A stretch of DNA of 64,000 nt. It comes from Polyangium jinanense. Lineage in GTDB: Bacteria; Myxococcota_A; Polyangia; Polyangiales; Polyangiaceae. Location of the stretch: positions 102,900 through 166,899 of the forward strand of contig NZ_JAGTJK010000012.1 of NCBI RefSeq assembly GCF_028435265.1. The letters are read 5' to 3'. The position numbers and the translations under genes are program-made. The notes below the pieces were generated by a model. That model was not told the origin of the DNA, ran no database searches, and saw only the letters and a program-made list of their open reading frames with translations. This document shows positions 27,010 to 48,452 of this stretch, one piece after another (positions within the stretch are counted from its first letter, which is position 1; the number at the start of each line of letters is the position of its first letter).

Positions 27010-27510
27010 ATGACGACGGATACGTTCTCTCCTTATGCTGGCCCTTATGATGTGACCCTCGCTGACGTGAAGGACGATCTCGTCGATCTCCCCGCTGGAT
27101 CCTCCAAGGGCTTCCGTGGCGTGCAGCCTGGCATCGAGGACGTCGTCGACGAGCTTGCCGGCGCCATTCCCGTGTTCGGTGATGCCGCGGGGATCCCCGC
27201 GAAGGTCTACGAGCGCTTCACCGTCGAGACGATGAGCATCGACGCCCTCACCAGGAAGGAGGCGCTCCTCGAAAAGATGCTCGAGGCCACCCGCGAGTCG
27301 AGGCGCCTCAAGGTCCACCAGCGCGAGAACACCATCGCCCAGATGGTCGACATCGCCAAGTCCACCGCCCAGCGCACCCGCAACAAGGGCATCCTCGCGC
27401 CCTTCGAGAAGACCGTCCGCTACAACGCCCAGACCGCGCTCAAGGCCGTGAAGACCCGCCGCAAGAACGAAGCCGCGAAAGCCGCGGCCACGTCAAGCCT
27501 CGAAAAGTAG
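27010..27510 (+). CDS. Hypothetical protein (166 aa), first gene of the T6SS-containing block
   Basis: GGAGG RBS 7 nt upstream. Predicted helical and basic C-terminus. No recognizable family. Confidence 0.5.
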   Translation: MTTDTFSPYAGPYDVTLADVKDDLVDLPAGSSKGFRGVQPGIEDVVDELAGAIPVFGDAAGIPAKVYERFTVETMSIDALTRKEALLEKMLEATRESRRLKVHQRENTIAQMVDIAKSTAQRTRNKGILAPFEKTVRYNAQTALKAVKTRRKNEAAKAAATSSLEK

Positions 27511-27692
27511 CCCTTCGTTCGACGCTCGGGGGCTACGCGCGGGCAAGCCGAGCTACGCCCCCAAACCCCCGCCCCCTCCTCGGCCATCCCACAGCCGTCC
27601 CCCCTAACCCATCGATTCCGCTCTCCTCTGTAGTCTACCTTCGCGAGTTTGTAGACCCGTCCCGCACGATCGCTCTACCCTATACGACACTC

Positions 27693-28190
27693 ATGGGTTC
27701 GTGTAGGCACGCTCGGGGCGGAGCGAGGGGCAGGGCGCGATGGATCGCAGCGCTTGCCCTGGTCTTGCCTTTGGGCCTCGGGTGCTCCGCGGGTCCCCCG
27801 CCGACCCGGTTTCTCGTCGAGGTCGCAATCACCGCCAAGGCGAACCGGAATTCGCCCGTCCCCATGACCCTCGTCGCGGTCCAGGACGCGAAGCTCTTCG
27901 ACCAGATCATCAAGCTCACCGCCAAGCAGTGGTACGAGCAGCGCGAGCAGATGCGCCGGGATTTCCCGAGCGGCACCGCGTTCACCGAGTGGGATTGGGA
28001 ATTCGTCCCGGGCCAGGCCCCACCACCCATGGTCGTCGAGGTCGACGGCAAGGCCCTCGGCGCCGTCATCTTTGCAAACTACCGCTCGCCCGGCGATCAT
28101 CGCTTTCGTATTGGCCCGCAACGCCGGATGCGGGTCGACCTCGGCGACGACGACCTCGTCGTGAGCCCCCTCGATGCTCCGGAGGATTGA
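27693..28190 (+). CDS. tssJ: Type VI secretion lipoprotein TssJ
   Basis: ~165 aa. Lipobox LGLGCS. The size and position immediately before tssK fit TssJ. Confidence 0.7.
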   Translation: MGSCRHARGGARGRARWIAALALVLPLGLGCSAGPPPTRFLVEVAITAKANRNSPVPMTLVAVQDAKLFDQIIKLTAKQWYEQREQMRRDFPSGTAFTEWDWEFVPGQAPPPMVVEVDGKALGAVIFANYRSPGDHRFRIGPQRRMRVDLGDDDLVVSPLDAPED

Positions 28191-28191
28191 C

Positions 28192-29520
28192 ATGCGCGCC
28201 GACGACATTCCGCTCGCGATTCAATGGCACGACGGGATGCTCCTGTCGCCGCAGCACTTCCAGGAAGCCGATCGCAGATCCGAACGCCTGCTCGCCTATC
28301 ACCTCGGACAAGCCGCGCCGTATCACCACGGCATCGTCGAACTCAAGCTCGCCGAAGGCACGCTCGGCAGCGGTCTCCTCCGTGTTCAGAAGGTCGAAGC
28401 CATCATGCCCGATGGCACCCTCGTCCATCACGCCGGCGGCAAACACGACCTCTCCGTCGACCTCCGCCCCCAGGCCGCGCTCGTCCGCGACGCACCCGCC
28501 ACCGTCTTCCTCGCCGTCCCGCGCGCGCAGGCCGCCGTCTCCGCCTCCGCCGCGGACCTTGCGCGCCACCGCTCCGCCGAAGGCGCGGCCGTCGTCGACG
28601 AACACACCGGCGAAGATCCCCTCGAGATCCCGCGCATCGCCCCGAGCGTCCGCCTCCTCGTCGCGGCCGAACCTCCGCCGCGCCTCGTCTGTTTGCGCAT
28701 CGCGCGCGTTCGCCTCGAAGGCGAGGCGTTCGTCGCGACCGACTACATCCCGCCGACCCTCGGCGTCGCCCCGGGCTCGCCCCTCGACGAGATGTGTCAA
28801 CGCCTTGCCGGTCGCCTCCGCGAGAAGGCCATGCGCCTCGCCGAAAAGGCGAACTTCCTCTCACGCACCACCGATCGCGAGCTCATCGGCGAGATCCGCC
28901 GCCAGATCCAGTGCCTCGTCGCCGCGCTCCCTCCCTTCGAGGCCGTCCTCTACTCCGAGCGCCCGCATCCGTTCTCCCTGTTCGTCACGCTCACGGGCCT
29001 CGTCGGCCAGATCTCCTCGCTCGCGCGCACGCCCGTGCCGCCGCTCCTGCCGAGGTACCGGCACGACGACCTCCGCGCGACCTTCGAGAATGCCCGCGAT
29101 CACATCTTCCGCATGGTCGACGAGGGCATCATCGAGTCGTTCACGGCCTATCCGTTCGACCTCAAGGAGGGCAAGTACAACGTCCTCTTCCAGCGCGAGT
29201 TCCGAACGCGCGCCGTCGTCATCGCCGTCCGCGCCCCGCGTGGCGTGCGCGAGGATCAGCTCCTCAACTGGATGAACGGCGCGCTCATCGGCGCCCCGGG
29301 GCGCCTGCGCACCATGCAGGAGAGCCGCATCCTCGGCGCTGGCAGGAAGCGCGTCGAGCGCCACGGCGACCTCGTCGCCACGCCCGGCACCTTGCTCTTC
29401 GAGCTCGAAGAGCAGAGCGTCTACCTCGACCCGGGCGAGCCGCTCACCTTGTGCAACACGGCCGATCCGACGGGCCAGAGCGGACCGTCCGAGGCGGTCC
29501 TCTACGTGAAGAGCGGGTAG
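28192..29520 (+). CDS. tssK: Type VI secretion baseplate protein TssK
   Basis: The N-terminus IQWHDGMLLSPQHFQEADR matches the TssK signature (W.EGMFL.PQHFQQ.DR). 443 aa. Confidence 0.85.
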   Translation: MRADDIPLAIQWHDGMLLSPQHFQEADRRSERLLAYHLGQAAPYHHGIVELKLAEGTLGSGLLRVQKVEAIMPDGTLVHHAGGKHDLSVDLRPQAALVRDAPATVFLAVPRAQAAVSASAADLARHRSAEGAAVVDEHTGEDPLEIPRIAPSVRLLVAAEPPPRLVCLRIARVRLEGEAFVATDYIPPTLGVAPGSPLDEMCQRLAGRLREKAMRLAEKANFLSRTTDRELIGEIRRQIQCLVAALPPFEAVLYSERPHPFSLFVTLTGLVGQISSLARTPVPPLLPRYRHDDLRATFENARDHIFRMVDEGIIESFTAYPFDLKEGKYNVLFQREFRTRAVVIAVRAPRGVREDQLLNWMNGALIGAPGRLRTMQESRILGAGRKRVERHGDLVATPGTLLFELEEQSVYLDPGEPLTLCNTADPTGQSGPSEAVLYVKSG

Positions 29521-29527
29521 GGGCGCG

Positions 29528-30283
29528 ATGGCTGCTTCTCCGGGACGCTTTGCGCTCGGCCCCAAACAGGCCGCCCTGCGGGACCAGCGCGTCCTCGTCG
29601 ACGCGTTCTGCAACTTCCACGCGGACGTCGTCACGCAGAAGCGCATCGTCGTCGCCTCGGGCGGCGTCATGCCCTACGACGCCGTCCAGCAGCGCCTCCT
29701 CGACGCCTTCGAACAGCAGGCCGGCAAGATCCAGAGCTCGCTCCCCGAGCACGAACGCCGCCTCTTCGAGGAGACCCGCTACGTCATGATCGCCATGGCC
29801 GACGAGGTCTTCCTCCACCTCGACTGGTTTGGCAAAGAGTACTGGGCAGACAAACCGCTCGAATCGATCGTCTTTCAGACCCGCGACTCGGGCGATCGTT
29901 TCTTCAATCGCATCGACGACGCCCTCAACGGACGCACCCCGGCGTCGTCGCAGCTCCTCACGGTGTACCTCACGGCCCTCGCGCTCGGCTTCCGCGGCCG
30001 GTACGCGCCCCTCGGCACCGGCGAGCCCGAGACCTACCGCGCGCGTATCGTCGACTTCCTCGCCCGCACCGATCCCGAGATCGTCCGCGGCGAAGACCTC
30101 TGCCCCCAGGCGCACGAGCACACCGCGACCGATACGCCCCAGAAACGTTTGCCCTCCCTCTCCCGAGGCATCCTGCCGTTCCTCGTCGTCATCCTCGGCT
30201 GGATCGTCATCGGTGAGATCCTCTGGCTTTATCGCACGGCCGAGCTCGACACCGTGCTCGACCGCATCGAGGACGCCACGTGA
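29528..30283 (+). CDS. tssL: Type VI secretion membrane protein TssL (DotU family)
   Basis: DotU-like core (LLTVYLTALALGFRGRY). Single C-terminal TM helix. Confidence 0.85.
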   Translation: MAASPGRFALGPKQAALRDQRVLVDAFCNFHADVVTQKRIVVASGGVMPYDAVQQRLLDAFEQQAGKIQSSLPEHERRLFEETRYVMIAMADEVFLHLDWFGKEYWADKPLESIVFQTRDSGDRFFNRIDDALNGRTPASSQLLTVYLTALALGFRGRYAPLGTGEPETYRARIVDFLARTDPEIVRGEDLCPQAHEHTATDTPQKRLPSLSRGILPFLVVILGWIVIGEILWLYRTAELDTVLDRIEDAT

Positions 30284-33200
30284 CCGTCGGCACCCTCCTC
30301 AAGATCGTCGCCGGCCTGATCGCGCTCGCCGTCGTTGGCGTCGGGATCTACGCGTTCGTCCTCGCGCAGAAAAAGAAAGCGCAGAAGGCCGCGGAGCTCG
30401 CGAGGCAGGGCGGCGCGCCCGATCCCATCGCCGAGATCCGCGCCTCCGTGGCCAAGGCCAAAGCCGCGCTCGTCAAGAAGGTCCAGGACAAGACCGCGCG
30501 CGAGGAGATGCCGCGCTACCTCGTCCTCGGCGAACCCTCGTCCGGAAAAACCACGCTCCTCGGCGGCTCGGGCCTCAGCGTCCAGCTCATGGAGGGCGGC
30601 GATCCCGCGCCCGGCGATACGTCGTCCGTCAACCTCTGGATGCTCGGCAAGGCCCTCATCGTCGACGTCGCCGGCCGCCTCCTCTTCGGCGAGGGCGGCA
30701 CGGCCGCGCCCGATCCGCCGTATCGCGCCCTGCTCCAGGAGCTCAAGCGCCTCCACCCCGATCGCCCCATCGACGGCATCCTGCTCACGGTCCCTTGCGC
30801 CGAGGTCATGCAGACGGCGCGCTCCACGCCCGCCGAGCGCAAGCGCAAGGCCACGATCCTGCGCGCCGCCATCTCCTTGGCGCAGCAGACCCTCGGCATG
30901 AACGTCCCGGTCTACGTGATCGTCACGCAGACCGATCGCCTCGCCGGTTTCCGTAGCCTCGGCATGGAGGTCGCGCAGACCCGTCGCGACGACATCCTCG
31001 GCTGGTCGAGCCCGCACCCGCCCTTCACCGACGGCTCCGAGGACTGGGCCTCCGAAGCGCTCGGCACCGTCCGCGATGCACTCCTCCGTTACCAGGCGCG
31101 ACGCTTCGCCGGCCCCTCCGTCGTCCGCGCGCCTGACGACTTTTTCCTGTTCCCGAGCGAGATCGAGGCGCTCACCGACGGCCTGCAAACCTACGTCGAC
31201 CCCGTCTTTCTCGAAGGCGCCGGCCAGGACACGCTCACCCTCCGCGGCATCTACTTTTGCGGCCTCGCCGATCCGCCCGGTCCTCCGCAGCTCACGGCCC
31301 CGGGCGCCACGCCCGCCGCGCTCGCGCCGCCGCCCGCGGCCGCGGCTGGGTCGGGCAAGGTCCTCTTCTCGAAGGACCTCTTCGAGCACAAAGTGTTTGC
31401 CGAGCGGAACCTCGGCCAGCCCGCGGCCGCCGCGCTCAGGAGCCGCCGGCGTATCAACCTCGCGCTCCAGATCGCGGCGTGTTGCCTCGGCGGCGCCTTC
31501 CTCGCGGCCCTCTGGATCGACGCCTCGCGCCTCGAACGCCGCACGAACGCGCTGATGCCGTTCCTCCGCGACGTGCAGAGCAACGTCCTTTCGGCGAAGA
31601 GCGAGGCCCCGGGCACCGAGGCGAACTTCGACGCCAAGAAGCTCCGCGCCAAGGCCCTGATCGAAAAACTCGAAACGATCGAAGAGTCGGGCCGCCTCCG
31701 CTCCCCGCTGAACCCCTCTTCCTGGTGGGGCCGCCTCGATCGCCGCGTCGATCAGGCGTTCGTCGTGGCCCTCGAGAGTGTCCTCGTCGACACCTTCCGC
31801 GCCGGCCTCAACGAGGAGGCCGCGCACCTCTTGCGCCCGCTCCCGCCGCAGCCCCCGCCCGACGCGTTTTTCCCCCTCAGCGTCGAGAAGAGCCAGGAGT
31901 ACATCAACCTGGAGACGTGGCTGCGCGAGCTCACCGCGTTCGAGGCCCACGTCGCGCGCCACGACGGCCTGCTCGGCGAGTTGCCCAAGGACGCCACGCC
32001 CGACGCCCGCATGCAGAGCGTCGCCGACCTCTCGGATTACCTGCTCGGCTACAAGACTTCGCCCACGATCGCGGTCGACTACTACCGCAACGCCCTCGCG
32101 CGCGGCGCGCGCCGTCAGCCCTTTGACGTCGCCCCGCGCCGCGATCCGGCTCGGGAGAAGGCCACGGCGCTCTTCAAGGGCCTGCAGGATCGGGTCCTCG
32201 AAGCCTACAGCGACGCCGTCGTCCGCGCCGACGTCGAGCAGCTCGTGCAGAGCCTCAAGGACCTCGAAACGAAGGGCGCCGAGTACACCGTGCAGGACCT
32301 CTGGACCTTGCGCGACACGATCGCCCGGGTCGAAGCGCACCTCGGCGCGCCCACGCTCTCCTGGGTCTCGGGCGAGTCGCTCCCGCCGAACGAGGGCATC
32401 GCGAACCTGCTCAAGACCGTCAAGAATTCGCGCCTCCTCGGCCCCGACGTCGAGGCGTCCTTGCGCGGCGGCGTCGACGCGCGCCTGCTCGACCTCAAGA
32501 CCTACGTCGCGAGCGCGGGCGCGCCCCTCTCCGGGCCCATCCTGGAGCGCAAGGGCGGCGTCCTGCTCATGCGCCTCTCGCCCTTCATCCTCGGGCTCAA
32601 GGCGCCCATCGACGCGCTCCGCCAGCAGACGTTCATGACGGCCGAGGAGGAGAAGACCCTCACGCCCGACGTCGATCGCTCGCGTGTCGACTGGGACGGC
32701 GAGGTGCTCAAAGAGGCCGCGCGTTTGCCCAAGGACTACGAGGCCTTCGTCCAGGGCGGCGTCCTCAAGACGGTCGATTCGCGCATCCGCAACACCATCT
32801 CCGACCTCACGGTCCGCCAGGTCAAGGCGAACACCCTCGGCGCCGTCGCCCGCGCCGCGCGCCCGGCCACGCCGCTGTCGGGGAACAACAATCGCCAGTT
32901 CGAGAACGTCCGCGCCGACGCCGCGAACCTCGGCCAGGCGATGGCGCCCATTCGCGAGATGATCGGCGCGTTCGTGCGCCTGCGCATGGACGACGCCCGC
33001 GATCGCCTGCGCGAGGTCTTGCGTGGCCAGGGCTCCGAGGTCCTCGGCCGCGGCGCCGACGTCCTGCGCGCCGAGAACCTCTACGGCCTCAAGAAGGGCG
33101 GCTTCACCTGGTGGGATGGCAAATCGACGCCGGCGTTCGAGGCGTTCAGCGTCCCCGACGCCGGGCGTTTGTCCGAGTATGCCGCGGCCCAGCGCACGCG

Positions 33201-34326
33201 CGCGGCCACGTTGCACAAGGAGCTCGCCGAGCCGCTGCTCACGGCCATGGAGAGCCCCGAGGTCGCGGGCGACGCGAGCGGTGATCCCAACGTCTCGCTC
33301 TGGCAGAACGTCGCCTGGCCGCTCAAGGATTACGAGAACAAGAAGGCGGGCAACGGGGTCTCGAACCTGGAGACCTTCATGCTCTCGGATCTCCCGCTCA
33401 TCACGGCGAAGAACTGCATCGCCGAGCTCGACAAACGCGCCGGCGTCGACGGCTCGGGCGGCTTCTTCGCGGGCAAGCAGAAGTACATCGTCGAGGAGCT
33501 GCGCGAGCGGTGCCGCGTCCTTGCCGGCGAGGAGATGCGTGATCGTTATGCCGCGCTCCGCCGCACCTTCAACCGCGAGCTGTCGGGCAAGTTCCCCTTC
33601 GTGAAGATCGAGCCGGGCATCCGCGTCGAGGACGCGCGGCCCGAGACCGTGCGGCGTTTCCTCCAGGACGCCGCCGATTTCCGTTCCGATTTCGGCTACG
33701 TCCTCGGCAAGGACACGAAGGCCTCGGCCGGCGAGGTCGGGCGATTCCTCGAAAAGATCGAGGCTGTCCGCGCCTTCATGATGCCCATGTGGGCGCAGGT
33801 CGAGTCGGCCGAGGACGGCATCTACGACGTCAAGGTCGAGTTCCGCGTCAATCCCGGCCTCGAGGTCGGCGGCAACCGCATCGCCGAGTGGGCCGTGCGC
33901 CTCGCGGACGAACGCCTGTGGCGCGACGGCCCCAAGGCCGAGGCGAGCTGGCGCGTGAACGACTCGGTCCGCCTCGATCTGCGCTGGGCGAAGAGCAGCC
34001 TCGACGTCCCGCTGCCGACGCAGGGCCCCAATGTCTTCGTCAATGATCGGACCGTCACGTTCGAGGAGCGCGGCCCCTGGGCGCTCTTGCGCATGATCGC
34101 GTTCCATCAGACCGCGGCGCGCGACGGCTCGCAGAAGACCGAGGGGGGCTCGCACGTGCTCGGCTTCGTCGTGCAATCGTCGCCCGATCCGACGGGTGGC
34201 TTCATCGAGCGCGTCGGCACCGACGCCAACACCGTCCGTGTCTTCATCCGCGTCGCGCTCACCGGCGTCGAGAAGGACCGGCTCCTCCGATACCCCGAGT
34301 TTCCGGCGATCGCCCCGAACCTTTAG
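30280..34326 (+). CDS. tssM: Type VI secretion membrane ATPase TssM (IcmF family)
   Basis: N-terminal TM. Walker A GEPSSGKTT. 1348 aa. The GTG start overlaps the tssL stop. Confidence 0.85.
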   Translation: MTVGTLLKIVAGLIALAVVGVGIYAFVLAQKKKAQKAAELARQGGAPDPIAEIRASVAKAKAALVKKVQDKTAREEMPRYLVLGEPSSGKTTLLGGSGLSVQLMEGGDPAPGDTSSVNLWMLGKALIVDVAGRLLFGEGGTAAPDPPYRALLQELKRLHPDRPIDGILLTVPCAEVMQTARSTPAERKRKATILRAAISLAQQTLGMNVPVYVIVTQTDRLAGFRSLGMEVAQTRRDDILGWSSPHPPFTDGSEDWASEALGTVRDALLRYQARRFAGPSVVRAPDDFFLFPSEIEALTDGLQTYVDPVFLEGAGQDTLTLRGIYFCGLADPPGPPQLTAPGATPAALAPPPAAAAGSGKVLFSKDLFEHKVFAERNLGQPAAAALRSRRRINLALQIAACCLGGAFLAALWIDASRLERRTNALMPFLRDVQSNVLSAKSEAPGTEANFDAKKLRAKALIEKLETIEESGRLRSPLNPSSWWGRLDRRVDQAFVVALESVLVDTFRAGLNEEAAHLLRPLPPQPPPDAFFPLSVEKSQEYINLETWLRELTAFEAHVARHDGLLGELPKDATPDARMQSVADLSDYLLGYKTSPTIAVDYYRNALARGARRQPFDVAPRRDPAREKATALFKGLQDRVLEAYSDAVVRADVEQLVQSLKDLETKGAEYTVQDLWTLRDTIARVEAHLGAPTLSWVSGESLPPNEGIANLLKTVKNSRLLGPDVEASLRGGVDARLLDLKTYVASAGAPLSGPILERKGGVLLMRLSPFILGLKAPIDALRQQTFMTAEEEKTLTPDVDRSRVDWDGEVLKEAARLPKDYEAFVQGGVLKTVDSRIRNTISDLTVRQVKANTLGAVARAARPATPLSGNNNRQFENVRADAANLGQAMAPIREMIGAFVRLRMDDARDRLREVLRGQGSEVLGRGADVLRAENLYGLKKGGFTWWDGKSTPAFEAFSVPDAGRLSEYAAAQRTRAATLHKELAEPLLTAMESPEVAGDASGDPNVSLWQNVAWPLKDYENKKAGNGVSNLETFMLSDLPLITAKNCIAELDKRAGVDGSGGFFAGKQKYIVEELRERCRVLAGEEMRDRYAALRRTFNRELSGKFPFVKIEPGIRVEDARPETVRRFLQDAADFRSDFGYVLGKDTKASAGEVGRFLEKIEAVRAFMMPMWAQVESAEDGIYDVKVEFRVNPGLEVGGNRIAEWAVRLADERLWRDGPKAEASWRVNDSVRLDLRWAKSSLDVPLPTQGPNVFVNDRTVTFEERGPWALLRMIAFHQTAARDGSQKTEGGSHVLGFVVQSSPDPTGGFIERVGTDANTVRVFIRVALTGVEKDRLLRYPEFPAIAPNL

Positions 34327-34340
34327 GAGACAGAGCCTCG

Positions 34341-35420
34341 ATGTCGACGAAGGCCCCGCTCATCGATCTGGAGATCCTGCTCCAGCCCATCTCCGAGGAG
34401 GCGCCTTGTGGCACGTCTCTCCGGTACGAAGGCACCTACGATCGGGTCCGCGAGGCGCGCCGCGAGGACGACCCCTCGCTGCCGATGGGCGAATGGGAGA
34501 CCAAGCTCAAGGTCTCCGACCTCGCGCTCGTGGACAAACTTTGCCAGGAAGCGCTGCGCAAGAAATCGAAGGACCTCCAGATCGCGGCCTGGCTCGTGGA
34601 GGCGTGGCTCCGGCGTTACCGCGTGAAGGGCCTCGGCCATGGTTTGTCCCTCGTCACCGGGCTCTGCGAGCGATTCTGGGACGGCCTCTTCCCCGAGGTG
34701 GGCGACGACCCCGACGCCGCGGCGCGCGCCGCGCTTTACGAGTGGATGGACGACGTCCTCTCCGATCGCCTGCGCCGCACGCCTTTCACGGAGGGCGACG
34801 GATCCTTTTCGCTGCTCGATTGGGAGCTCGGCGGCGCGTCTGTGTCCGCCGACGGGGAAGGGGAGGGCGCGCGGCCCACGCGAGAATCGCTGCTCGCCAA
34901 GATCTCGCTCGGCGGCGCGGGCACGCGCTGGACCGACATCGCGCTCGACGCGGGCACGGCCATCATGGCGGCCGAGGCGGCCGAGGCGGCGATCGCCGCG
35001 CAGATCTCGCGCCCGCCCACGCTCCGCCGCGTGCGGGAGGTCCTCACGCAGATCGAGCTCCTCGCGCGCGAAACGGCGCGTATCAACGGCGAGAGCGTGC
35101 CCGTGGCGAGCGCGCCCGCGGCGAGCCCGCCGCCGCTCGGATCGGCCGCTGCGGCTGCGGCGGCGTTCACGGCGCCTTCCGGGGGAGGGGCGGGCGGCTC
35201 GTTTGCGATCACGAGCCGCGCCGACGCCTATTATCGGCTCGCCGAGGCGGCCGAGTACCTCATGCGGACCGAGCCGCACAGCCCTGTGCCGTACCTGGTC
35301 AAACGTGCGGTGCAGTGGGGCAACATGTCGCTCGCCCAGCTCCTCTACGAGTTCGTAGGAAACCCCGATGATCTCGTGGCGATACAGCGCTTGCTCGGGA
35401 TGCGCGGGAGGGAGGAGTAA
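34341..35420 (+). CDS. tssA: Type VI secretion protein TssA (ImpA N-terminal domain)
   Basis: ImpA_N-like N-terminus (PISEEAPCGTSLRYEGTYDRVREARRED...WETKL..DL). Confidence 0.8.
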   Translation: MSTKAPLIDLEILLQPISEEAPCGTSLRYEGTYDRVREARREDDPSLPMGEWETKLKVSDLALVDKLCQEALRKKSKDLQIAAWLVEAWLRRYRVKGLGHGLSLVTGLCERFWDGLFPEVGDDPDAAARAALYEWMDDVLSDRLRRTPFTEGDGSFSLLDWELGGASVSADGEGEGARPTRESLLAKISLGGAGTRWTDIALDAGTAIMAAEAAEAAIAAQISRPPTLRRVREVLTQIELLARETARINGESVPVASAPAASPPPLGSAAAAAAAFTAPSGGGAGGSFAITSRADAYYRLAEAAEYLMRTEPHSPVPYLVKRAVQWGNMSLAQLLYEFVGNPDDLVAIQRLLGMRGREE

Positions 35421-35593
35421 CGCCGGGGGGAAAAAGGGGGGGTGCGAGAGAGCGCCCCTACGAGGGTGTTGTGTTGACGAGCCTGGGCACGGTAAAAGGG
35501 TAATGCGCCAGCCTTACGCGCCGTGCGCGGGCGGGTTTTCGGAGAGTTCGCAAGCCGCGGCGCCGCCGCGAGAGCCGAGGAAGGGAGCCATCG

Positions 35594-36094
35594 ATGGCAG
35601 AGAGCAAGCAGCACTGGCTGGACCGAAACCGTCCGCCGCGTGTGCAGATCACCTATGACGTCGAGACGGGCAACGCAATCGAGAAGAAAGAGATCCCGTT
35701 CGTGGTCGGCGTGCTCAGCGACCTGGGGCGGAACGAGGCAAACCCGCTGCCCAAGCTGAAGGATCGCAAGTTTGTCGAGATCGACCGCGACAATTTCAAC
35801 GACGTCCTCGCCTCGACGAAGCCCGAGATCACGGTGAAGGTCGACGACGTCCTCAAGGGCACCGGCAAGATCGGGATTCCGCTGACGTTCACGCACCTCG
35901 ACGATTTCCGGCCCGAGCGTCTCGTCGAGCGGATCCCGGAGCTCCGCAAGCTTCTTCGCGCGCGCGAGCGCCTGAACGATCTTCTCGCCAAGCTCGAGGG
36001 CAACGACGAGCTTTCGGCGGCGCTGCGTGAGGTCATGGAGAGCACGGATGCTCTCCAGAAGATCACGGCGGAAGTCTCCAAGGATCAGAGCTAG
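35594..36094 (+). CDS. tssB: Type VI secretion sheath small subunit TssB (VipA)
   Basis: RVQITYDVETG...EIPFVVGVLSDL matches the TssB N-terminal signature. Confidence 0.9.
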   Translation: MAESKQHWLDRNRPPRVQITYDVETGNAIEKKEIPFVVGVLSDLGRNEANPLPKLKDRKFVEIDRDNFNDVLASTKPEITVKVDDVLKGTGKIGIPLTFTHLDDFRPERLVERIPELRKLLRARERLNDLLAKLEGNDELSAALREVMESTDALQKITAEVSKDQS

Positions 36095-36114
36095 GCCGCG
36101 CGGAGGGTACGAAC

Positions 36115-37617: not shown

Positions 37618-37654
37618 CGGGCCTCGCGAATCGGTGTAGGGTACATCAGGATGT

Positions 37655-37690
37655 TGCCGTCCCGCGCTCGAAGGGAGCGCGCGGGCGGCG
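37655..37690 (+). terminator. Imperfect GC-rich hairpin between tssC and hcp (possible attenuator/processing site)
   Basis: cccgcgctc-gaaggga-gcgcgcggg inverted repeat in the 103-bp tssC-hcp spacer. No clear U-tract. Confidence 0.25.
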
Positions 37691-38215: not shown

Positions 38216-38251
38216 CCCGAGGACGATTCGGCGTCCCAGGGGAACGACAGA

Positions 38252-40533: not shown

Positions 40534-41558
40534 AGGCCTGGCTCTTCGACGAGGGGCACGCCTTCGATTTTTATCAGGCCGTCTCCCTCCTCGAACGCTT
40601 TCGGGAAGGCGACGCCGTCCCCGTCGGCGAGGGCTCCGATCCTTCGCGCGAGTCCGTGCGATTCGCCGGGAGCATCGCGCTCGCCTTCCCCGAGACCGAC
40701 GTCGCGCGCATTCGCCCGCCGCACCGCGAACGCGAGCCCGCGCAGATGCTCGTGAACTTCCTCGGTCTCGGCGGCGCCCTCGGCCCACTGCCGCCGCCGA
40801 TCGTCGAGTCGATTTACATGCGCGCCGTCCGCGGCGACACCGCGGCGCGGGATTTCCTCGACATCTTCAACCATCGCCTCGTCTCGTTCGCATATCGCAT
40901 CCGCAAGAACCATCGCCTCGGCCTCGGCATCTCCTCGCCCGAAAAAGACGGCGCGGCGCGGCACCTCTTCGCGCTCATGGGCCTCGGCTTTCAGGCGCTC
41001 GAAGGCCGCCTCGCGGTCCAGGATCGCGCCCTGCTCGAACACGCGGCAAACCTCGGAAGCGAGTCCCGTTCGCTCGAAGGCCTCGTCGCCATTCTCCGCC
41101 GGCATTTCGGCGTCCCCATCGAGCCCATCCCGCTCACAGGCGCCTTTCACCCGATCGAGGAAAACGATCGCACGGCGATCGGCCGATCCGGTCAGAACCG
41201 CGCACTCGGCCGCGACGCATGTCTGGGGGGCCGTTTCTGGGATCAGGAGTCCACGTTCGATCTGCGCATCGGGCCCATGAAGCTCGATGAATTCCTGCGA
41301 TTCCTCCCGGACGGCGACGCGCTCCGGCCTCTCTGCTCCCTCGTCCGTTTTTATGCAGGCGCACGATTCCACTTTGGCCTCATCCTCGTGCTGGCCGAGG
41401 GCGAGGCGCCGCGGATCGAGCTCGGCCGCGCCACGTGCGCGCTCCTCGGCCAAATCGCCTGGCTCGGAAACGTGAACAAGCACGGCGGCAGGGTGCGCGA
41501 GGTGCGTTTGTCGCGTGCGGCCATTCGGAAAGGCCTCGGTGAGGCGCCGGGCGGCTGA
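40497..41558 (+). CDS. tssG: Type VI secretion baseplate protein TssG
   Basis: FDFYQAVSLLE motif. 353 aa. Overlaps the tssF 3' end. Confidence 0.85.
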   Translation: MAAHGWRKSPSVEAWLFDEGHAFDFYQAVSLLERFREGDAVPVGEGSDPSRESVRFAGSIALAFPETDVARIRPPHREREPAQMLVNFLGLGGALGPLPPPIVESIYMRAVRGDTAARDFLDIFNHRLVSFAYRIRKNHRLGLGISSPEKDGAARHLFALMGLGFQALEGRLAVQDRALLEHAANLGSESRSLEGLVAILRRHFGVPIEPIPLTGAFHPIEENDRTAIGRSGQNRALGRDACLGGRFWDQESTFDLRIGPMKLDEFLRFLPDGDALRPLCSLVRFYAGARFHFGLILVLAEGEAPRIELGRATCALLGQIAWLGNVNKHGGRVREVRLSRAAIRKGLGEAPGG

Positions 41559-41611
41559 AACACTCCCTTGTCAACCGTCTGCGCGCCGGGATATCGTTCT
41601 GCTGAGGCCTT

Positions 41612-44600
41612 ATGACGACTGCAGAACAGAGCCAGGGCGCCACGGAGAGCATTCCGAGCAAGCTCGGGAAGTTCGCCACGGAGCAGATCGACAAGGCCGA
41701 GGTCACGGTCACGAAGGGCGTCTCTACCGTCCGTGACTCCACGAACCAGATCATCAGCAAGGCCGAAGAGCAGATCCTCAAGCTCAACAAGGCCCTCTAC
41801 GAGACCAAGAACGGCATCTCGTCCGGCATCGACACGGCCATCAAGGAGACGGAAGGCCAGCTCAAAGGGATCACGCCCGAGCTCAAGAAGATGGGCGAGG
41901 ATGCGATCAAGACGGCCAAGGACAAACTCGACGGACTCGTCGACGAGGTCGAGGGCAAGCTCGAATCGCAAAAAGACTCGCTCGTCAAGACGGCGCAGGA
42001 TCAGATTCGGAACGCGGCCGATCAGGCGAAGGGCAAGATCGACGAGATCGGACAGCTCGGCGAGGATCAGGCGAAGAAGGTCCTCGATGCGGTCAAGACG
42101 CAGGCCGACACCGTCGATCAGAAGCTCGGCGATCTCGAGGGGCAGATCGACGGCAAGATCCAGGCGATCGGCGACGACGTGCGCGGCAAGTTCGAAGCGG
42201 CGCTCGCCAAGGTGCCGGATCACGACGGCGCGAAGGTCGAGATGTCGGCGAACGTCGACGCCGTCGTCGCGGAGCTGCGTAGTGCCACGAAGGACTCGAT
42301 CGAGCAGGCGCGCGAGACGCTCAAGTCGCTGGTCAAGCAGACCGACGACACGATCATGCAGACGATCGGCGACGTGCGGCGCGCGATCGGCGAGGTCCCC
42401 GCTCGCATCAACCAGTGTGCGCAGGACATCCTCGCGAAGGTCAATGACGCGATCCAGAAGACGATCGACGAGATCTCGAACCTCGCGCACGGGCTCGTGG
42501 CGCGCACGGCGGAGCTGCTCAACCAGGCGCTGCTCACGATCACGAGCACCGTCGACAAACTCCTCGCCGACGGCTTCGCGCTCGTGCGTGGGATCAAGGC
42601 GGATCTCGATCGTCTCCTCGACAAACTGCTCGAACAGATCCGGGATCTGACGCTCGGCACGCTGGAGGACGTCCGCAAGGCGGCGAACGAGCTACTCGGC
42701 ACGTTCGAGGCTGAATGCAAGAAGATCCTCCAGACGATGGAGGAGTCCGTCATCGGCTCGGTCGAGGAGCTCGGCGGCAAGATGAACGCCTCGATCAAGG
42801 CGCTCCAGGCCGACCTGAACCTCGATGCCGACAAGATCGTCCGGGACCTCGTGGCCGAGGGCGCGAAAGGGCACGACGACGCGCTCGCCGACTTCATCAG
42901 CGCTGGTTATTCCGAGGACACCTCGGTCATCCCCAAGATCCGGGCCAAGGGCGAGGCTGCGATCAAGCAGATCGAGGCCAAGACGAAGGCCCAAGGGGAG
43001 AAGCTGATCAAGGACTTCGAGATGCAGGCGACCCTGCTGAAGCCCAAGATCCAGGCGCAGGGTATCAAGGTCGTCGCGCAGATCGCCGCGCTCGGACCGA
43101 AGCTTGCGATGCAGGCGGTCCAGATTGCGACGAGCATCGCGTCGTCCATCAAGGACAAGGGCGAGGCGGTCAAGAAGACGTTCGAGGAGCTGCAAAAGAC
43201 GCTCGTCGACGCGATCACGAAGAAGATCCCCGATTACCTCGAAAACTGCAAGAAGCAGATCAAGGCCGCGGCCGATGCGCTCGTCGAGGCGGGCAAGACG
43301 TTCTACGAGAAGACGCTCGCCGACATCATGGGGGCGATCAAGGCGGCCGAGGCGCGGTTCAAGCAGCTTGCCTCGGAGATGAAGGACCTCATCGAGACGC
43401 AGGTCCTCGCGCTCGTGGCCTCCATTCGCAGGACGGTGGAGACGTCCATCCAGCGCTTCAAGGATCTCGGCGCCGCGTTCGAGGAAAAGACGAATGCGCT
43501 CGTCAACGACATCCCGGCGCGGCTCATCAAGCTGGAGCAGGTCGCGCGGCTCGCGGTCGAGCGCGAGATCACGCTGGCGAAGGGGCTCGCCAATGCGACG
43601 AAGGACGACATTCTCCTGAAGGCGCGGACGACGCTGTCGGAGATCAAAAAAGCGGCGTACGGGGTCCTCGGCGGCATCCGGGGCGATTTCGGCGCGGTGC
43701 AGGGATCGCTCGCGCTCATCGTCCCGGCGGGCGCGGGGCTCGACGCGGCGGGCGCGATCAACCTCGCGGTCTCGGGCGGGCTCGAAGGGATGATCGCGTC
43801 GGCGGCGAATGCGGCGCAGGCCGCGGTGACGGCGGGCGTGAATGCGGCCGAGGCCGTGAACAATGCAGCCGAGCAGGCGGCGGCCGCGATGAGCGCGGCT
43901 GGATTCGACGGCGCGGCGAAGTCATTGACGGACGTGCTCTCGCAGCAGATGGGCGAGGTGCGGACGGAGGGCGAGAAGGCCAAGAACGTCATTGCCGCGG
44001 CGAAGGAGAAGATGACGGCGGTCGCCAAGGAGGCGACGGACACCTGCACGCAGGCGGCGCAGGCGGCGCAGGCCGCGGCCGCGGAGGTCGTGGCGGCCGC
44101 GAATTCGACGGGCGACGCGATCAAGGCGTCGGCGGAGAACCTGACGAAGGGCCTCGAAAAGGCGAAGGACATCGTCAAGGATGCCGGCAAGGCCGCGATG
44201 CAATCGATGAAAGAGGCCCAGGACGTGCGCAAGGGAGGCGACGGCGCGCAAGCCGGCGCGGGTGCGCAGGCCAAGGCCGGCGGGGCGGATGGCGCGGCGG
44301 CGGGCGCGGATGCGGGCGGCGCGGATGGCTTGGCGGTGCCCGAGGGCGAGGCGGCGGCTCCGGAAGGGGAGGCGGCCGCGGCTCCGGGCGGCGCGGAGGC
44401 GGCTCCGGACGGCGCGGCGGCGGCTCCGGATGTCAAGGCAGCGGCTCCGGATGCCAAGGCGGCGGTTCCGGATGCCAAGGTGGCGGTTCCGGATGCCAAG
44501 GTGGCGGTTCCGGATGCCAAGGTGGCGGCTCCGGATGCCTCGAAATCGGCGCCGGATGTCCCGAAATCGGCGCCGGATGTCTCGAAACCGGAACTGGACG

Positions 44601-45289
44601 TCTCGAAACCGGAACCAGGCGCCGATGTAGCGGCGGTGGCCGCCAAGGTACCGGATCCGGCTGCCAAGGTAGCGGCTCCGGCCGCCAAGGTAGAGGTGCC
44701 GGCCGCCAAGGTAGAGGCGCCGGCCGCCAAGGTAGAGGCGCCGGCCGCCAAGGTAGAGGCGCCGGCCGCCAAGGTAGAAATTCCGGGCGCCCCGAAAGCG
44801 GCGCCGGCCGCCAAGGTAGAAATTCCGGCCGCCCCGAAGGCGGCGCCGGCCGCCAAGGTAGACATTCCGGCTGCCAAGGTAGACGTTCCGGCTGCCAAGG
44901 CGGTGCCCGGCGTGCCGGAAGGCAAGGCTCCGGCGCCCCCAGGCAAAGCTGCGATGCCGGAAGGCAAACCGCAGGTGCCCGAAGGCGGCATGCCCGGGGT
45001 GCCAAAAACCGGCGAAAAGCCCGCCTTTCCTCCCGCCCCCGCGCCTCAGGCCCCCGCGCCTCCCGCTCCGGCGGACGTGGCCCCCTTCGCGCCCGCGCCG
45101 AAGCCGCCGGCCGCGCCCGCCGTCCCTGCCGGCGCGAAACCCGCGCCCGCCGCGCCCGCCGCCCCCGTGATCCCTGCCGGCGCGAAACCCGCGCCCGCCG
45201 CGCCCGCGCCGCCCGCCACGCCCGCGGCCAAGCCCGTCGTTCCCGCCGCCCCCGGCAGCAAATGGCCTGGCAGCGGCAACAAGCCTTGA
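41612..45289 (+). CDS. Giant (1225 aa) all-helical repeat protein with C-terminal 7-aa tandem repeats and an Ala/Pro-rich tail. Function unknown. Located 53 bp after tssG
   Basis: No Cys/Trp-rich domains. K/E/D/A/Q-rich amphipathic 11/22-mer-like helices over ~1000 aa. Then (VPDAKVA)n and (PAAKVEA)n repeats, then a PAPAPKP-type tail. Weak GAGG RBS. Confidence 0.7.
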   Translation: MTTAEQSQGATESIPSKLGKFATEQIDKAEVTVTKGVSTVRDSTNQIISKAEEQILKLNKALYETKNGISSGIDTAIKETEGQLKGITPELKKMGEDAIKTAKDKLDGLVDEVEGKLESQKDSLVKTAQDQIRNAADQAKGKIDEIGQLGEDQAKKVLDAVKTQADTVDQKLGDLEGQIDGKIQAIGDDVRGKFEAALAKVPDHDGAKVEMSANVDAVVAELRSATKDSIEQARETLKSLVKQTDDTIMQTIGDVRRAIGEVPARINQCAQDILAKVNDAIQKTIDEISNLAHGLVARTAELLNQALLTITSTVDKLLADGFALVRGIKADLDRLLDKLLEQIRDLTLGTLEDVRKAANELLGTFEAECKKILQTMEESVIGSVEELGGKMNASIKALQADLNLDADKIVRDLVAEGAKGHDDALADFISAGYSEDTSVIPKIRAKGEAAIKQIEAKTKAQGEKLIKDFEMQATLLKPKIQAQGIKVVAQIAALGPKLAMQAVQIATSIASSIKDKGEAVKKTFEELQKTLVDAITKKIPDYLENCKKQIKAAADALVEAGKTFYEKTLADIMGAIKAAEARFKQLASEMKDLIETQVLALVASIRRTVETSIQRFKDLGAAFEEKTNALVNDIPARLIKLEQVARLAVEREITLAKGLANATKDDILLKARTTLSEIKKAAYGVLGGIRGDFGAVQGSLALIVPAGAGLDAAGAINLAVSGGLEGMIASAANAAQAAVTAGVNAAEAVNNAAEQAAAAMSAAGFDGAAKSLTDVLSQQMGEVRTEGEKAKNVIAAAKEKMTAVAKEATDTCTQAAQAAQAAAAEVVAAANSTGDAIKASAENLTKGLEKAKDIVKDAGKAAMQSMKEAQDVRKGGDGAQAGAGAQAKAGGADGAAAGADAGGADGLAVPEGEAAAPEGEAAAAPGGAEAAPDGAAAAPDVKAAAPDAKAAVPDAKVAVPDAKVAVPDAKVAAPDASKSAPDVPKSAPDVSKPELDVSKPEPGADVAAVAAKVPDPAAKVAAPAAKVEVPAAKVEAPAAKVEAPAAKVEAPAAKVEIPGAPKAAPAAKVEIPAAPKAAPAAKVDIPAAKVDVPAAKAVPGVPEGKAPAPPGKAAMPEGKPQVPEGGMPGVPKTGEKPAFPPAPAPQAPAPPAPADVAPFAPAPKPPAAPAVPAGAKPAPAAPAAPVIPAGAKPAPAAPAPPATPAAKPVVPAAPGSKWPGSGNKP
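44440..44900 (+). repeat. In-frame 21-bp tandem repeats (ggcggttccggatgccaaggt x4; gccggccgccaaggtagaggc x4 and variants)
   Basis: Direct reading of the sequence. The repeats encode (A/V)VPDAKV and APAAKVE heptads. Confidence 0.8.
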
Positions 45290-45296: not shown

Positions 45297-45686
45297 TCAG
45301 GGCACCTGCACCGTGACCTGCCCGGGGAACGAGATCTGAATCACCCCGCCCCACATGCACATCAGCTTCGAGCTGTTGTTCAGCGCGGGCATGTTCGCGA
45401 GCAGCACCGTTGGGGCACCGACGATCCACGGCGCCGGCGTGTTCGGAATGCACGGCATTGGCGTGAGCACGCCCATCGCCGCCGCCGTCGCCGCGGCCAC
45501 CGTCGGGTTCGCCAGGCTCTGACACATCCCGAACGGCAGCACGTTCAGCATGGGCTTGCCGTCCATGATGTTCGCCAGCGGCCCCGCGCTGTTCATCGTC
45601 CGGTTCGCGGGAAGCACCGTGAGCGAGCTCGGCGCCACGCCGAAGCTGCATTGCATCATCGCCCCCATGCATACGTGCTGGCCCAT
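45297..45686 (-). CDS. DUF4280-family PAAR-like protein (T6SS spike tip)
   Basis: VCMGAMMQCSFGVAPSSL.V...N......PLANIMD..P..NVLPFGMC.S.ANP.V...TAAAMGVLTPMPCIP.T..PW..GAPTVL....PAL...S...C.WGG.I.I.FPGQ matches the DUF4280 pattern. Confidence 0.85.
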   Translation of the reverse strand: MGQHVCMGAMMQCSFGVAPSSLTVLPANRTMNSAGPLANIMDGKPMLNVLPFGMCQSLANPTVAAATAAAMGVLTPMPCIPNTPAPWIVGAPTVLLANMPALNNSSKLMCMWGGVIQISFPGQVTVQVP

Positions 45687-45688
45687 CG

Positions 45689-46441
45689 TCAGCCTCCCGC
45701 GAGCTTGTTCACGACCTTGTCGAAGAAGGACTCTTTTTTCTCCTCCTTCGCCTTCGGAATGCCCTTGTCGTCGTACTCGACCTCGCCGCGCTTCTCGCCG
45801 TCCTTGTACGTCGCCTTCGCCTTCAGCTTGCCCTGCACGTCGTAGCTGAACGCGTCGCCTTGCTTCTTGCCGTTGTCATAGATGGCGCGCTCGCGGACCT
45901 CGCCGTTCGGGAAGTACTCGATCACCTCCCCGTGCAGTTTGTCGGCCTTGTAGCTCGCTTTGCGCAGGGTGTTGCCCTTGCCGTCGAGGAACAAGGATTC
46001 CCCTTCGAGCTTGCCGTTCTTGTAGAACGACCGGACGACCTCGTTGCCCTGCTCGTCGAACGACATGAACGGGCCGTTCTGCTTGCCCTTCTCGAAATGC
46101 ATGAGCGTCCGGAGCCGGCCGTCGTCGTAGAGCCGCGTCGGCCCGTGCTGCTCGCCCTTCGCGAACGTGACGATCTGCGAGACCTTGCCGTTCTCGTCTA
46201 CGATCTTCGTCTCGCCGTGGAGCACGCCGTCCTGGAATGACGAACGCTCGACCTCGCGTCCTTCCGGATCGTACGTGATCGACAAACCGTGCAGCTTGCC
46301 GTTCTTGTAATTCGCCCGGTGCGCGATCTGCTTTTCGGTCTCCCCGTACTGGACGAACTCGCCGTGGAGCACGCCGTCTTCCATCTCGAACCGGGAGATC
46401 AGCTTGCCGTTCTCGTCGCGCTCTTCGTGGTCGGTCGGCAT
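45689..46441 (-). CDS. MORN-variant (YwqK-family) repeat protein
   Basis: Eight repeats of Y/F-K-N/D-G-K-x-H/Q-G-x-x-x-x-Y/F-D-x-x-G. Confidence 0.8.
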   Translation of the reverse strand: MPTDHEERDENGKLISRFEMEDGVLHGEFVQYGETEKQIAHRANYKNGKLHGLSITYDPEGREVERSSFQDGVLHGETKIVDENGKVSQIVTFAKGEQHGPTRLYDDGRLRTLMHFEKGKQNGPFMSFDEQGNEVVRSFYKNGKLEGESLFLDGKGNTLRKASYKADKLHGEVIEYFPNGEVRERAIYDNGKKQGDAFSYDVQGKLKAKATYKDGEKRGEVEYDDKGIPKAKEEKKESFFDKVVNKLAGG

Positions 46442-46451
46442 CGGATCCTCG

Positions 46452-48452
46452 CTAATTGATCTTCACCATGCCGCCCTTCAAGGTCAGCATGCCGCCGCCC
46501 TCCACCGCCGCCTGCGCGCCGCCCTTCGCCTTCAGCGCGATCGCGCCCTCGAGCGTCATGTTCGTCCCGCCCTTGGCCTTGAAATCGGTGCCGGCCTTCA
46601 GGTCCATCGCCGTCCCGGACTCGGCCTTGAAATCCGTGCCCGCCTTCATCGAAAACGCCTGCTTGGCCTTGATCGTGACGCTCTTCGCCTCGATCACGAG
46701 GTCGCCGTCGACCTTGATCGTGTAGTTCTTCGTCACCTTGTAATCGAGGTTCGCCTTGTTCGTGTGCGCCTCGTCCTTGGTGACCGTGAGCGTGCGTTTG
46801 CCCTTCACGCTGTGCGTCTCGTCGCCCTTGTCGACCTTGATCGTGCGGTTGCCCTTGGTGACCGTGAGCGTCTCGTCGCCCTCCTCGATCGTCACCTTCC
46901 GCTCGTTTTTGACGTTCTTCGTGTAATCGTGGAGGACCTTGACCGTCCAGTCGTTCTCCACCTCGAAGAGCATGTCCTTCTGGGCGTGCGCGTAAAACTC
47001 CTCGTTATCCTTCTTGTCGTCGAAGCGCAGTTCGTTCCCCGCCTCGCCCTCCTTCGACGATCGGCTCAGGATCGTGCTCTTCGTCTGCGCGCCCGGCAGC
47101 CCATAAGGCACCGTCTGCTCGGCGTTGTACACCGAGCCCGTCACGAGCGGCCTGTCCGGGTCGCCGTCGATGAAGCTCACGACGACCTCCTGCCCGATGC
47201 GCGGCAAGAACCACGCGCCCCAGCTCTTGCCCGCCCACGCCTGCACGACGCGCACGAAGCACGAGCTCTTGTCGTCCTTCGCGCCCTTGCGATCCCAGTG
47301 GAACTGGACCTTGATGCGCCCGTATTCGTCGGTCCACTGCTCCTCGCCGCTCTTGCCCACGACGACGGCCGTCTGCGTGCCGGGGATCGCGGGCTTCGGC
47401 GTGATGCGCGGCGGGCGGTACGACGTCTTCTTCGGGAACGCCTCGAAGGTATTCGTGTACCCCTCCTGGCTTGCGCGGTGCATGATCGAGGTGAGAACCC
47501 AGTCCGTGTTCGCGTCGTCCCGATCGTGCTCGTCGAGCTTGAACGCGTGCCCCGCCGTGAAGGCGCGGCAGCTCGATGTACCCGACAAACGCACCGCCCG
47601 CGCCTCCTCGGCCTCGATGCGGAGCTTCGCGCGCGTGTCGCCCGGGCTTTTCTCGATGTGCCCGCCCGGGTACTCGAAGAGCTCGAGCTTGGCCGTTTCG
47701 CCCGAGACCTCCGCGAGCAGCGACGTGCTCGGCATCTCGAAGTTGTAATCCGTCGACGCGTACTTTCCCGCGACGATCTCCTCTTCGAGCGTGCACTCGA
47801 GGACGGCGTCCTCGTCCGTCGACGTGGAGAACTGCTCGACGAACCGCGCCTTGTCGAGGTTCGGGCACGGCGCGGCCGACGCGCTGTCGTCCGAGAGCAC
47901 CATCACGTGCTTGCCGTCCTCGTGCTTGAAATAATAATGGATCCCCTCGTCCTCCATGAGCCGCGACACGAAATCGAGCGCGGTCTCCTGGTACTGCACG
48001 CAGTAGGGGCGCGGGGTGTAGGAGCCCTTCAGCGAATCCTTGAAGTGCTCGCCCGACGAGAAGCCGAGCTCCTGGAAGAGCGCCTTCAGGATGTCGGGCA
48101 CGCTCTTCTCCTGGAAGATCCGGCAATCGCTGGTCTTGCCGAGCAGCCATAACCACGGGTGCAGCTCCGCGCGGTAACGCGTCTGCTTGCCGACGCGCCC
48201 CGCCTGGACGAACCGCGTGCAGATCCCGTGGATGAAGCGCGGCTTCTCCTTGGCCATGCCCCGGATCGTCAAGGTCACGCCCTTGCCGACGATCGCCTTG
48301 AAGTCGAGCGCCTTCTCCGGCGACAAAAGCTCGAGCTCGAAGCGGAAGAGCCCCGAGATCCGCTCTTCGCCATGCAGATCGACGAGCAGCACCGCGTCCG
48401 CGCCGAAGGGCGTCGAGATGGCGATGCCGAGGGTGCCCTGCGGATAAGGCAT
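46452..48452 (-). CDS. vgrG: Type VI secretion spike protein VgrG (TssI), 666 aa, no C-terminal toxin extension
   Basis: The N-terminal gp27-like and gp5-like regions are conserved (..TRYRAELHPWLWLL..; ..IKVQFHWDR...SCFVRV.Q.WAG..WGA.F.PRIGQEVVVSFIDGDPDRP). C-terminal beta-helix repeats. Confidence 0.9.
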   Translation of the reverse strand: MPYPQGTLGIAISTPFGADAVLLVDLHGEERISGLFRFELELLSPEKALDFKAIVGKGVTLTIRGMAKEKPRFIHGICTRFVQAGRVGKQTRYRAELHPWLWLLGKTSDCRIFQEKSVPDILKALFQELGFSSGEHFKDSLKGSYTPRPYCVQYQETALDFVSRLMEDEGIHYYFKHEDGKHVMVLSDDSASAAPCPNLDKARFVEQFSTSTDEDAVLECTLEEEIVAGKYASTDYNFEMPSTSLLAEVSGETAKLELFEYPGGHIEKSPGDTRAKLRIEAEEARAVRLSGTSSCRAFTAGHAFKLDEHDRDDANTDWVLTSIMHRASQEGYTNTFEAFPKKTSYRPPRITPKPAIPGTQTAVVVGKSGEEQWTDEYGRIKVQFHWDRKGAKDDKSSCFVRVVQAWAGKSWGAWFLPRIGQEVVVSFIDGDPDRPLVTGSVYNAEQTVPYGLPGAQTKSTILSRSSKEGEAGNELRFDDKKDNEEFYAHAQKDMLFEVENDWTVKVLHDYTKNVKNERKVTIEEGDETLTVTKGNRTIKVDKGDETHSVKGKRTLTVTKDEAHTNKANLDYKVTKNYTIKVDGDLVIEAKSVTIKAKQAFSMKAGTDFKAESGTAMDLKAGTDFKAKGGTNMTLEGAIALKAKGGAQAAVEGGGMLTLKGGMVKIN

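Follow-up and report, generated by a model that had tools for sequence, protein, structure and literature searches.

An H3-like type VI secretion cluster without clpV in Polyangium jinanense and related Polyangiaceae

The closest described counterparts of the system reported here are the H3 type VI secretion system (T6SS) of Pseudomonas aeruginosa and the H3-like T6SSs of the Pseudomonas fluorescens group, in which the gene for the unfoldase ClpV3 lies directly after tssG; the two H3 operons begin with lip3 (PA2364) and hsiB3 (PA2365) (PMC3804575). T6SSs encoded without clpV have also been described. None of the Pseudomonas group 1.2a clusters, P. putida K2 and K3 included, carries the gene (bioRxiv 10.1101/2025.08.14.670259), nor do the HSI-II loci of P. 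fluorescens A506, SS101 and BG33R (PMC3390384). In Francisella, whose system belongs to subtype ii (T6SS-ii), the sheath is disassembled by housekeeping ClpB, and for the ClpV-free T6SS of Campylobacter jejuni it has been proposed that the sheath is disassembled by a distal ATPase or in some other way. In Myxococcus xanthus, clpV is part of the cluster (TssB MXAN_4807, TssC MXAN_4808, ClpV MXAN_4813; PMC4239648). Here we describe a T6SS cluster of Polyangium jinanense, found in a 64-kb stretch of contig NZ_JAGTJK010000012.1 (hereinafter the window), in which 12 of the 13 T6SS core genes (encoding TssJ, K, L, M, A, B, C, Hcp, E, F, G and VgrG) are present and clpV is missing. A literature search on the T6SSs of Polyangium and Sorangium turned up nothing specific.

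The cluster spans 27.7-48.5 kb of the window. Because the window has ~68% G+C, open reading frames (ORFs) were filtered by third-position G+C (GC3), and the encoded proteins were identified with Pfam and NCBIfam models (Table 1; the tssG start, giving 353 aa, was taken from the public gene call). These models recover TssK to TssG as one colinear run (28174-41558), followed by a VgrG-MORN-DUF4280 trio in which vgrG is inverted relative to the remaining cluster genes; the same trio recurs in four related loci (L004, L012, L077 and L006). With TssJ added by its fold, they bear out the count of 12 core genes without clpV made in an earlier note on this DNA. The sheath (TssB/TssC), tube (Hcp), spike (VgrG) and baseplate (TssE/F/G/K, with TssA) of a subtype i system (T6SS-i) are thus represented, together with a membrane complex of TssJ, TssL and TssM in which TssJ is assigned by lipobox, synteny and predicted fold. 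TssM matches its counterparts in related loci over its full length by tblastn, and its P-loop, GEPSSGKT at ~30529, is the sole genuine P-loop of the window. Start and stop codons overlap at J/K, L/M, E/F and F/G, as the earlier note had stated; the uniform compactness it also described is interrupted by a 3.7-kb ORF that splits tssG from the inverted vgrG module. TssC (MDC3956749.1 / MDC3984812.1), TssF (MDC3956752.1) and VgrG (MDC3956756.1) are identical to P. jinanense proteins, and the TssC look-up returned the locus on contig JAGTJJ010000023.1 of GCA_028435365.1.

The TssJ family and the gene layout, rather than a phylogeny, point to a cluster of the Pseudomonas H3-T6SS type, putatively group 4B / i4b, and the nearest relatives of its TssC, TssF and TssG are likewise encoded in clusters organised like H3. 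Polyangium shares with the P. aeruginosa H3 and P. fluorescens-group H3-like clusters a Lip3-type TssJ family that escapes the Pfam SciN model, a TssC that is ~63% identical, and the block tssB-tssC-hcp-(tssE)-tssF-tssG followed by vgrG-MORN-DUF4280. The assignment to an H3-like lineage follows from the Pseudomonas relatives, which carry a Lip3-family TssJ and show the divergent lip3|hsiB3 layout, J-K-L-M-A / B-C-Hcp-F-G-ClpV-VgrG. Whereas J-K-L-M-A forms a divergent operon in Pseudomonas, tssJ to tssG are colinear in Polyangium, as they are in three other related loci (L020, L073 and L004), and the clpV3 that directly follows tssG in H3-type clusters is absent from Polyangium. The Polyangium components belong to standard T6SS-i families (VipA/VipB, TssF, TssG and TssK) and not to the Francisella Igl type, although the Francisella and Campylobacter systems are alike with Polyangium in having no clpV encoded with them. 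All components match standard T6SS-i Pfam or NCBIfam models rather than Francisella T6SS-ii markers such as IglA/B/C and PdpB, and the only link is a weak, sub-threshold NCBIfam IglG match of the DUF4280 protein (63 bits against a cutoff of 200). The group 1.2a and HSI-II clusters of Pseudomonas are likewise canonical T6SS-i clusters that lack clpV throughout their lineage, and they have been regarded as potentially functional, but they belong to another phylogenetic group and phylum, and their genomes also hold clpV-carrying T6SS clusters. The M. xanthus cluster (MXAN_4800-4813), from the same phylum, has tssB-tssC and, a few genes on, the remaining tail and baseplate genes; this comparison, which the earlier note had proposed, sets its in-cluster ClpV, MXAN_4813, against the gap in Polyangium.

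The cluster and its surroundings are confirmed to lack clpV. This holds for all 64 kb, which include 27 kb before the cluster and 15 kb beyond it. When the window was scanned in six frames for Walker-A motifs, the P-loop of TssM was the only one in a true coding frame, and no ORF had the two Walker-A motifs of a double-AAA+ protein. Searches by tblastn with three ClpVs encoded in related clusters returned only chance matches of 21-23 bits (E<=10) in the same 64 kb; therefore neither a clpV gene nor a pseudogene remnant of one is present there. No clpV lies within +/-10 kb of the corresponding cluster in P. mundeleinium (L085), which sits on a complete 13.2-Mb contig, JAQNDO010000001.1 of GCA_028369105.1, or in a Polyangiaceae metagenome-assembled genome (MAG; L004), and none occurs in the available sequence of Polyangium sp. 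15x6 (L003). Since all three show the same gap, it is not an artefact of assembly or of the window edge, and the earlier note's statement that no clpV stands in or next to the cluster holds on all these counts.

To place the loss, we compared related loci obtained by a TssC scan of one genome per species (80 loci), using for the position of clpV the 47 loci that extend at least 4 kb beyond tssG (retrieved sequence, 4-7 kb past tssG). A clpV gene follows tssG in 42 of the 47, within 600 bp on the same strand in 40 and ~2 kb away in two; in the other five, none was found within the retrieved 4-7 kb. A Thermoanaerobaculia locus (L020) has exactly the order J-K-L-M-A-B-C-Hcp-E-F-G-ClpV, and in two further loci (L006 and L077) the tssG block is followed by ClpV-VgrG-MORN(-DUF4280). 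The Polyangiaceae MAG L004, whose TssC is 67% identical to that of the window, keeps the same order but passes from tssG directly to vgrG-MORN-DUF4280 without clpV. From these arrangements we infer that the slot after tssG is the ancestral position of clpV, and because L004, P. mundeleinium and sp. 15x6 also lack the gene, its loss predates the divergence of these Polyangiaceae. The ancestral order would have been J-K-L-M-A-B-C-Hcp-E-F-G-ClpV-VgrG-MORN-DUF4280; a clean deletion of clpV between tssG and vgrG would have occurred in a Polyangiaceae ancestor, and in the genus Polyangium there would then have followed an inversion of vgrG-MORN-DUF4280 and the arrival, in the vacated slot, of a gene encoding a giant helical protein. 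The earlier note's view that ClpV-less T6SSs are rare is overstated in light of Pseudomonas group 1.2a, the P. fluorescens HSI-II loci and five of 47 close relatives. Other genes occupy the place of clpV after tssG in two of the related loci: a deaminase-like ORF and an eCIS_core (DUF4157) ORF in Magnetospirillum (L063, 15257-17114), and a 643-aa ORF in Azospirillum (L056, 15489-17420). Genes appear to be replaced particularly often at the tssG-vgrG junction.

A missing core gene could also mean that the cluster is no longer functional and is decaying, with the loss of clpV as the start of its degradation, and a comparative study of myxobacteria reports degenerate T6SSs in some species (PMC10196010). 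However, the other 12 core ORFs are intact in all four genomes, P. jinanense, sp. 15x6, P. mundeleinium and MAG L004. Between P. jinanense and P. mundeleinium, the ratio of nonsynonymous to synonymous substitution rates (dN/dS) lies between 0.06 and 0.36 for nine core genes, and the core alignments are gap-free except for tssA. Judged from these ratios, the core genes are under purifying selection, and the intact ORFs and low dN/dS together argue against a remnant, which we regard as the least likely of the explanations considered here. Selection would instead have kept the machine without a cluster-encoded ClpV.

How contracted sheaths are then dealt with can be approached through the N-terminal helix of TssC, where the earlier note had proposed looking for a ClpV-binding motif. 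ClpV-positive relatives have the consensus SLLDxIIxEGRMA at the TssC N-terminus, which is the LLDEII-type motif of Forster et al. An LLDxII-type helix is found in the window TssC as AIIDQILSEGAMV (~residues 24-36) and in L004 as SLIDEILDQGHLV, and it is recognisably conserved in three ClpV-less Polyangiaceae genomes. Relative to the consensus, the window helix retains D, I and G; it scores 28.7 against 34.9 +/- 5.3 for 44 distinct ClpV-positive segments, which is inside the ClpV-positive range, in the lowest ~12%. The helix thus seems to be retained as a conservative variant, and this fits an external, trans-acting unfoldase without proving one. We favor, at about even odds (probability roughly 0.5), the reading that the cluster is a functional T6SS-i whose contracted sheaths are served by an unfoldase encoded elsewhere that docks on the retained TssC helix. 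Contracted sheaths would be dismantled by a protein supplied from another part of the 12-13 Mb genome, for which the candidates would be an orphan ClpV and, on the model of Francisella, the housekeeping protein ClpB, and docking would take place at the TssC N-terminal helix. Precedents are the Francisella T6SS served by ClpB and other systems that function without clpV.

Several observations weigh against this reading. The search for an unfoldase partner, which covered the 64-kb window and the surroundings of the relatives' clusters, identified none; as a weaker point, the best 120 of 8000 TssH matches to a profile of seven related ClpVs include none from Polyangium or Myxococcota. The pairing of ClpV with TssC can be highly specific, as in enteroaggregative Escherichia coli (PMC5048182), a point against the ready recruitment of an ATPase that is not the cognate one. 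The LL to II and R/K to A (/H) changes in the helix are rare among ClpV-positive relatives: I stands at each consensus L position in one of the 44 segments, and A is outside the five commonest residues at the R/K position. Finally, conservation of the helix is no proof of unfoldase binding, since the helix also belongs to the structure of the sheath recycling domain.

Ranked next, and tentative in our view, is a system with no active recycling at all, a T6SS of slow, low turnover whose contracted sheaths would be degraded or diluted out and whose subunits would be synthesised afresh. The earlier note had concluded that sheath recycling here must use a distant ClpV, a ClpB or another factor, which is too strong, as a V. 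cholerae clpV deletion mutant still fires (PMC10433429). That mutant retains killing activity, and a T6SS without recycling would resemble it and possibly the clpV-less Pseudomonas group 1.2a clusters; clpV-free 1.2a clusters are reported to be used in competition. The loss of clpV is, moreover, ancient and stable across Polyangiaceae, and slow turnover may be tolerable for slow-growing myxobacteria. Set against this are the continued conservation of the TssC helix in the three ClpV-less genomes and the P. aeruginosa H1 system, in which loss of ClpV1 abolishes Hcp secretion. We retain recycling by an unfoldase encoded elsewhere as the preferred reading.

The vacated slot itself holds, in Polyangium, an ORF of 1225 aa, which starts 53 bp after tssG on the same strand, where relatives carry clpV. 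Its GC3 profile is coding-like in the + frame along the whole ORF. The public gene call replaces it with a 562-aa minus-strand shadow ORF, and NCBI protein numbering leaves room for just two proteins between TssG and VgrG. The P. mundeleinium orthologue is annotated, at the same position, as a protein of 1268 aa; over the N-terminal 874 aa the two are 92.8% identical without gaps, with a dN/dS of 0.23. The first ~870 aa are predicted to form very long alpha-helices and are followed by ~350 aa of Pro/Ala-rich repeats. In the predicted model the protein is all-helical, with a few helices of up to ~230 residues, and because its predicted local distance difference test score (pLDDT) of 59 is too low, a fold search was not meaningful. 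A word-indexed search with the full ORF came back empty, as the Pro/Ala tail swamped the 8000 candidates; phmmer, run exhaustively with the first 900 aa, showed the family to be rare, with 31 related clusters in 1.84 billion representative proteins. The family has a strongly conserved core motif, GY.EDTSVIP.IR.KGE, at ~aa 430-450, and some homologues carry an OmpA domain. Among the three homologues with enough flanking sequence (P0001, P0009 and P0007, at L082-L084), none has T6SS neighbours; P0005 and P0016, on contigs under 2 kb, are outside this count. The gene is also absent from the equally ClpV-less MAG L004. In the 53-bp gap after tssG, a sigma-70-like site (41568-41597, +; TTGTCA-18-TATCGT, 9/12) hints that the gene may have its own promoter.

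One could suppose that this protein is a Polyangium-specific T6SS accessory or substrate, such as a sheath-associated tether or length factor, a substitute for ClpV in turnover or a secreted effector. Its place in the former clpV slot is conserved in at least three Polyangium species (P. jinanense, sp. 15x6 and P. mundeleinium), and its conservation is on a par with that of the core genes. We nevertheless consider such a role unlikely: the protein is predicted to be all-helical and the six-frame Walker-A scan found no ATPase motif in it, the gene is missing from L004 and may be transcribed from the promoter-like site of its own, the three distant full-length homologues with context sit outside T6SS loci, and landing beside a cluster by itself shows no function in the T6SS. 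Slightly less likely still is that the giant coiled-coil protein is a new sheath- or baseplate-associated filament that alters sheath clearance or anchoring and makes ATP-dependent ClpV dispensable. Because the family is rare, its homologues stand in non-T6SS contexts and L004 lacks the gene, we treat it as a genus-specific insertion and not as a demonstrated substitute for ClpV. Its recognition corrects the annotation, as a conserved gene had been missed by the public gene call.

TssJ required structural comparison, since the lipoprotein ORF upstream of tssK has no match in Pfam, in NCBIfam or in a profile search against PDB sequences. Its homologues lie upstream of tssK in dozens of related loci, and those of Pseudomonas, P. 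aeruginosa and P. fluorescens among them, carry the label 'type VI secretion protein'. The top ten PDB matches of its AlphaFold model (pLDDT 75) are exclusively TssJ structures, among them TssJ1 (3ZHN), Lip (4A1R) and SciN (3RX9), with E values of 4e-7 to 2e-5, as well as 4Y7O and 6IXH. This comparison of a predicted fold settled the identity of the ORF as TssJ and provides structural evidence that a Lip3-type lipoprotein invisible to hidden Markov models is TssJ. The cluster consequently begins with this gene and not at 27010, where the earlier note had placed its start and tssJ. The ORF at 27010-27510 encodes 166 aa with no lipobox and no family match, and it is missing upstream of tssJ in P. 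mundeleinium. The Lip3-type family as a whole, including its 158-aa P. aeruginosa member, escapes Pfam SciN, NCBIfam TssJ and PDB sequence profiles, and clusters of this kind would be taken to lack TssJ wherever T6SS core genes are counted automatically.

Three ORFs adjoin the start of vgrG and are transcribed divergently from it, two on the + strand and the third on the - strand (Table 1). The second of them encodes a 1295-aa protein that combines a peptidoglycan-binding domain with a peptidase end and has no signal peptide, and which is a plausible peptidoglycan-targeting T6SS effector. The right flank, which the earlier note had called clearly non-T6SS, may thus be cargo-like. On the left, a 526-aa nuclease with a lipoprotein-type signal and the multi-pass membrane ORF that follows it resemble a SitA-like myxobacterial lipoprotein polymorphic toxin with its immunity protein, rather than T6SS cargo. 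Tandem Repeats Finder detected an imperfect tandem array of ~6 copies of a ~43-nt unit with 75-82% matches at 26638-26923, in the intergenic DNA that precedes both the 166-aa ORF and the T6SS genes. Far to the right, the composition of a Cys-rich 2092-aa ORF produces a near-full-length shadow ORF on the opposite strand (57752-63535).

Table 1 Features of the clpV-less T6SS cluster of P. jinanense and its flanks (window positions)
Feature	Position	Strand	Evidence or features
526-aa protein	23816-25396	+	lipoprotein-type signal (…WLVGCG…); C-terminal WHH/colicin-DNase nuclease domain
Multi-pass membrane ORF, after the 526-aa nuclease gene	25891-26616	+	
tssJ, Lip3-type outer-membrane lipoprotein	27693-28190	+	lipobox LGLGC, Cys31; synteny; predicted fold
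tssK	28174-29520	+	Pfam T6SS_VasE, E 1.6e-47
tssL	29528-30283	+	Pfam DotU, E 3.4e-29
tssM	30280-34326	+	Pfam IcmF-related_N, E 1e-45; NCBIfam TssM E 7e-60, below cutoff
tssA	34341-35420	+	NCBIfam TIGR03363 TssA, 263 bits (cutoff 161); Pfam ImpA_N
tssB, small sheath subunit	35594-36094	+	Pfam T6SS_VipA, E 8e-53
tssC, large sheath subunit	36115-37617	+	Pfam VipB, E 5e-131, plus VipB_2
hcp (tssD)	37721-38215	+	Pfam T6SS_HCP, E 3.7e-37
tssE	38252-38728	+	Pfam GPW_gp25, E 1e-13; placed between hcp and tssF
tssF	38725-40533	+	Pfam T6SS_TssF, E 6e-196
tssG	40497-41558	+	Pfam T6SS_TssG, E 7e-87
1225-aa ORF, predicted all-helical, Pro/Ala-tailed	41612-45289	+	GC3 frame profile; conservation
PAAR-like DUF4280 spike-tip protein	45297-45686	-	Pfam DUF4280, E 1e-35
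MORN-repeat protein, conserved vgrG partner in this T6SS subtype	45689-46441	-	Pfam MORN_2
vgrG (tssI)	46452-48452	-	Pfam Phage_GPD, E 3.5e-97; Phage_base_V; Gp5_trimer_C
469-aa ORF	48451-49860	+	two ~60-aa repeats (WVEIELVDD.DPPKP…TVTFPDID)
1295-aa protein	50099-53986	+	PG_binding_1 and M74/LAS-type peptidase end; no signal peptide
LysM/peptidoglycan-binding 224-aa ORF	53991-54665	-	
2092-aa Cys-rich ORF	57347-63625	+	MopE-type metal-binding motifs

As clpV-less T6SS-i clusters are already documented, the Polyangium locus leaves the current understanding of these systems unchallenged. It adds a well-delimited, ancient and selectively maintained loss of clpV within an H3-like lineage that otherwise almost always carries the gene beside tssG, in a phylum whose T6SS biology has been studied mainly in the clpV-bearing M. 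xanthus. The Polyangiaceae could provide a natural test of whether H3-type sheaths are recycled by ClpB or not recycled.

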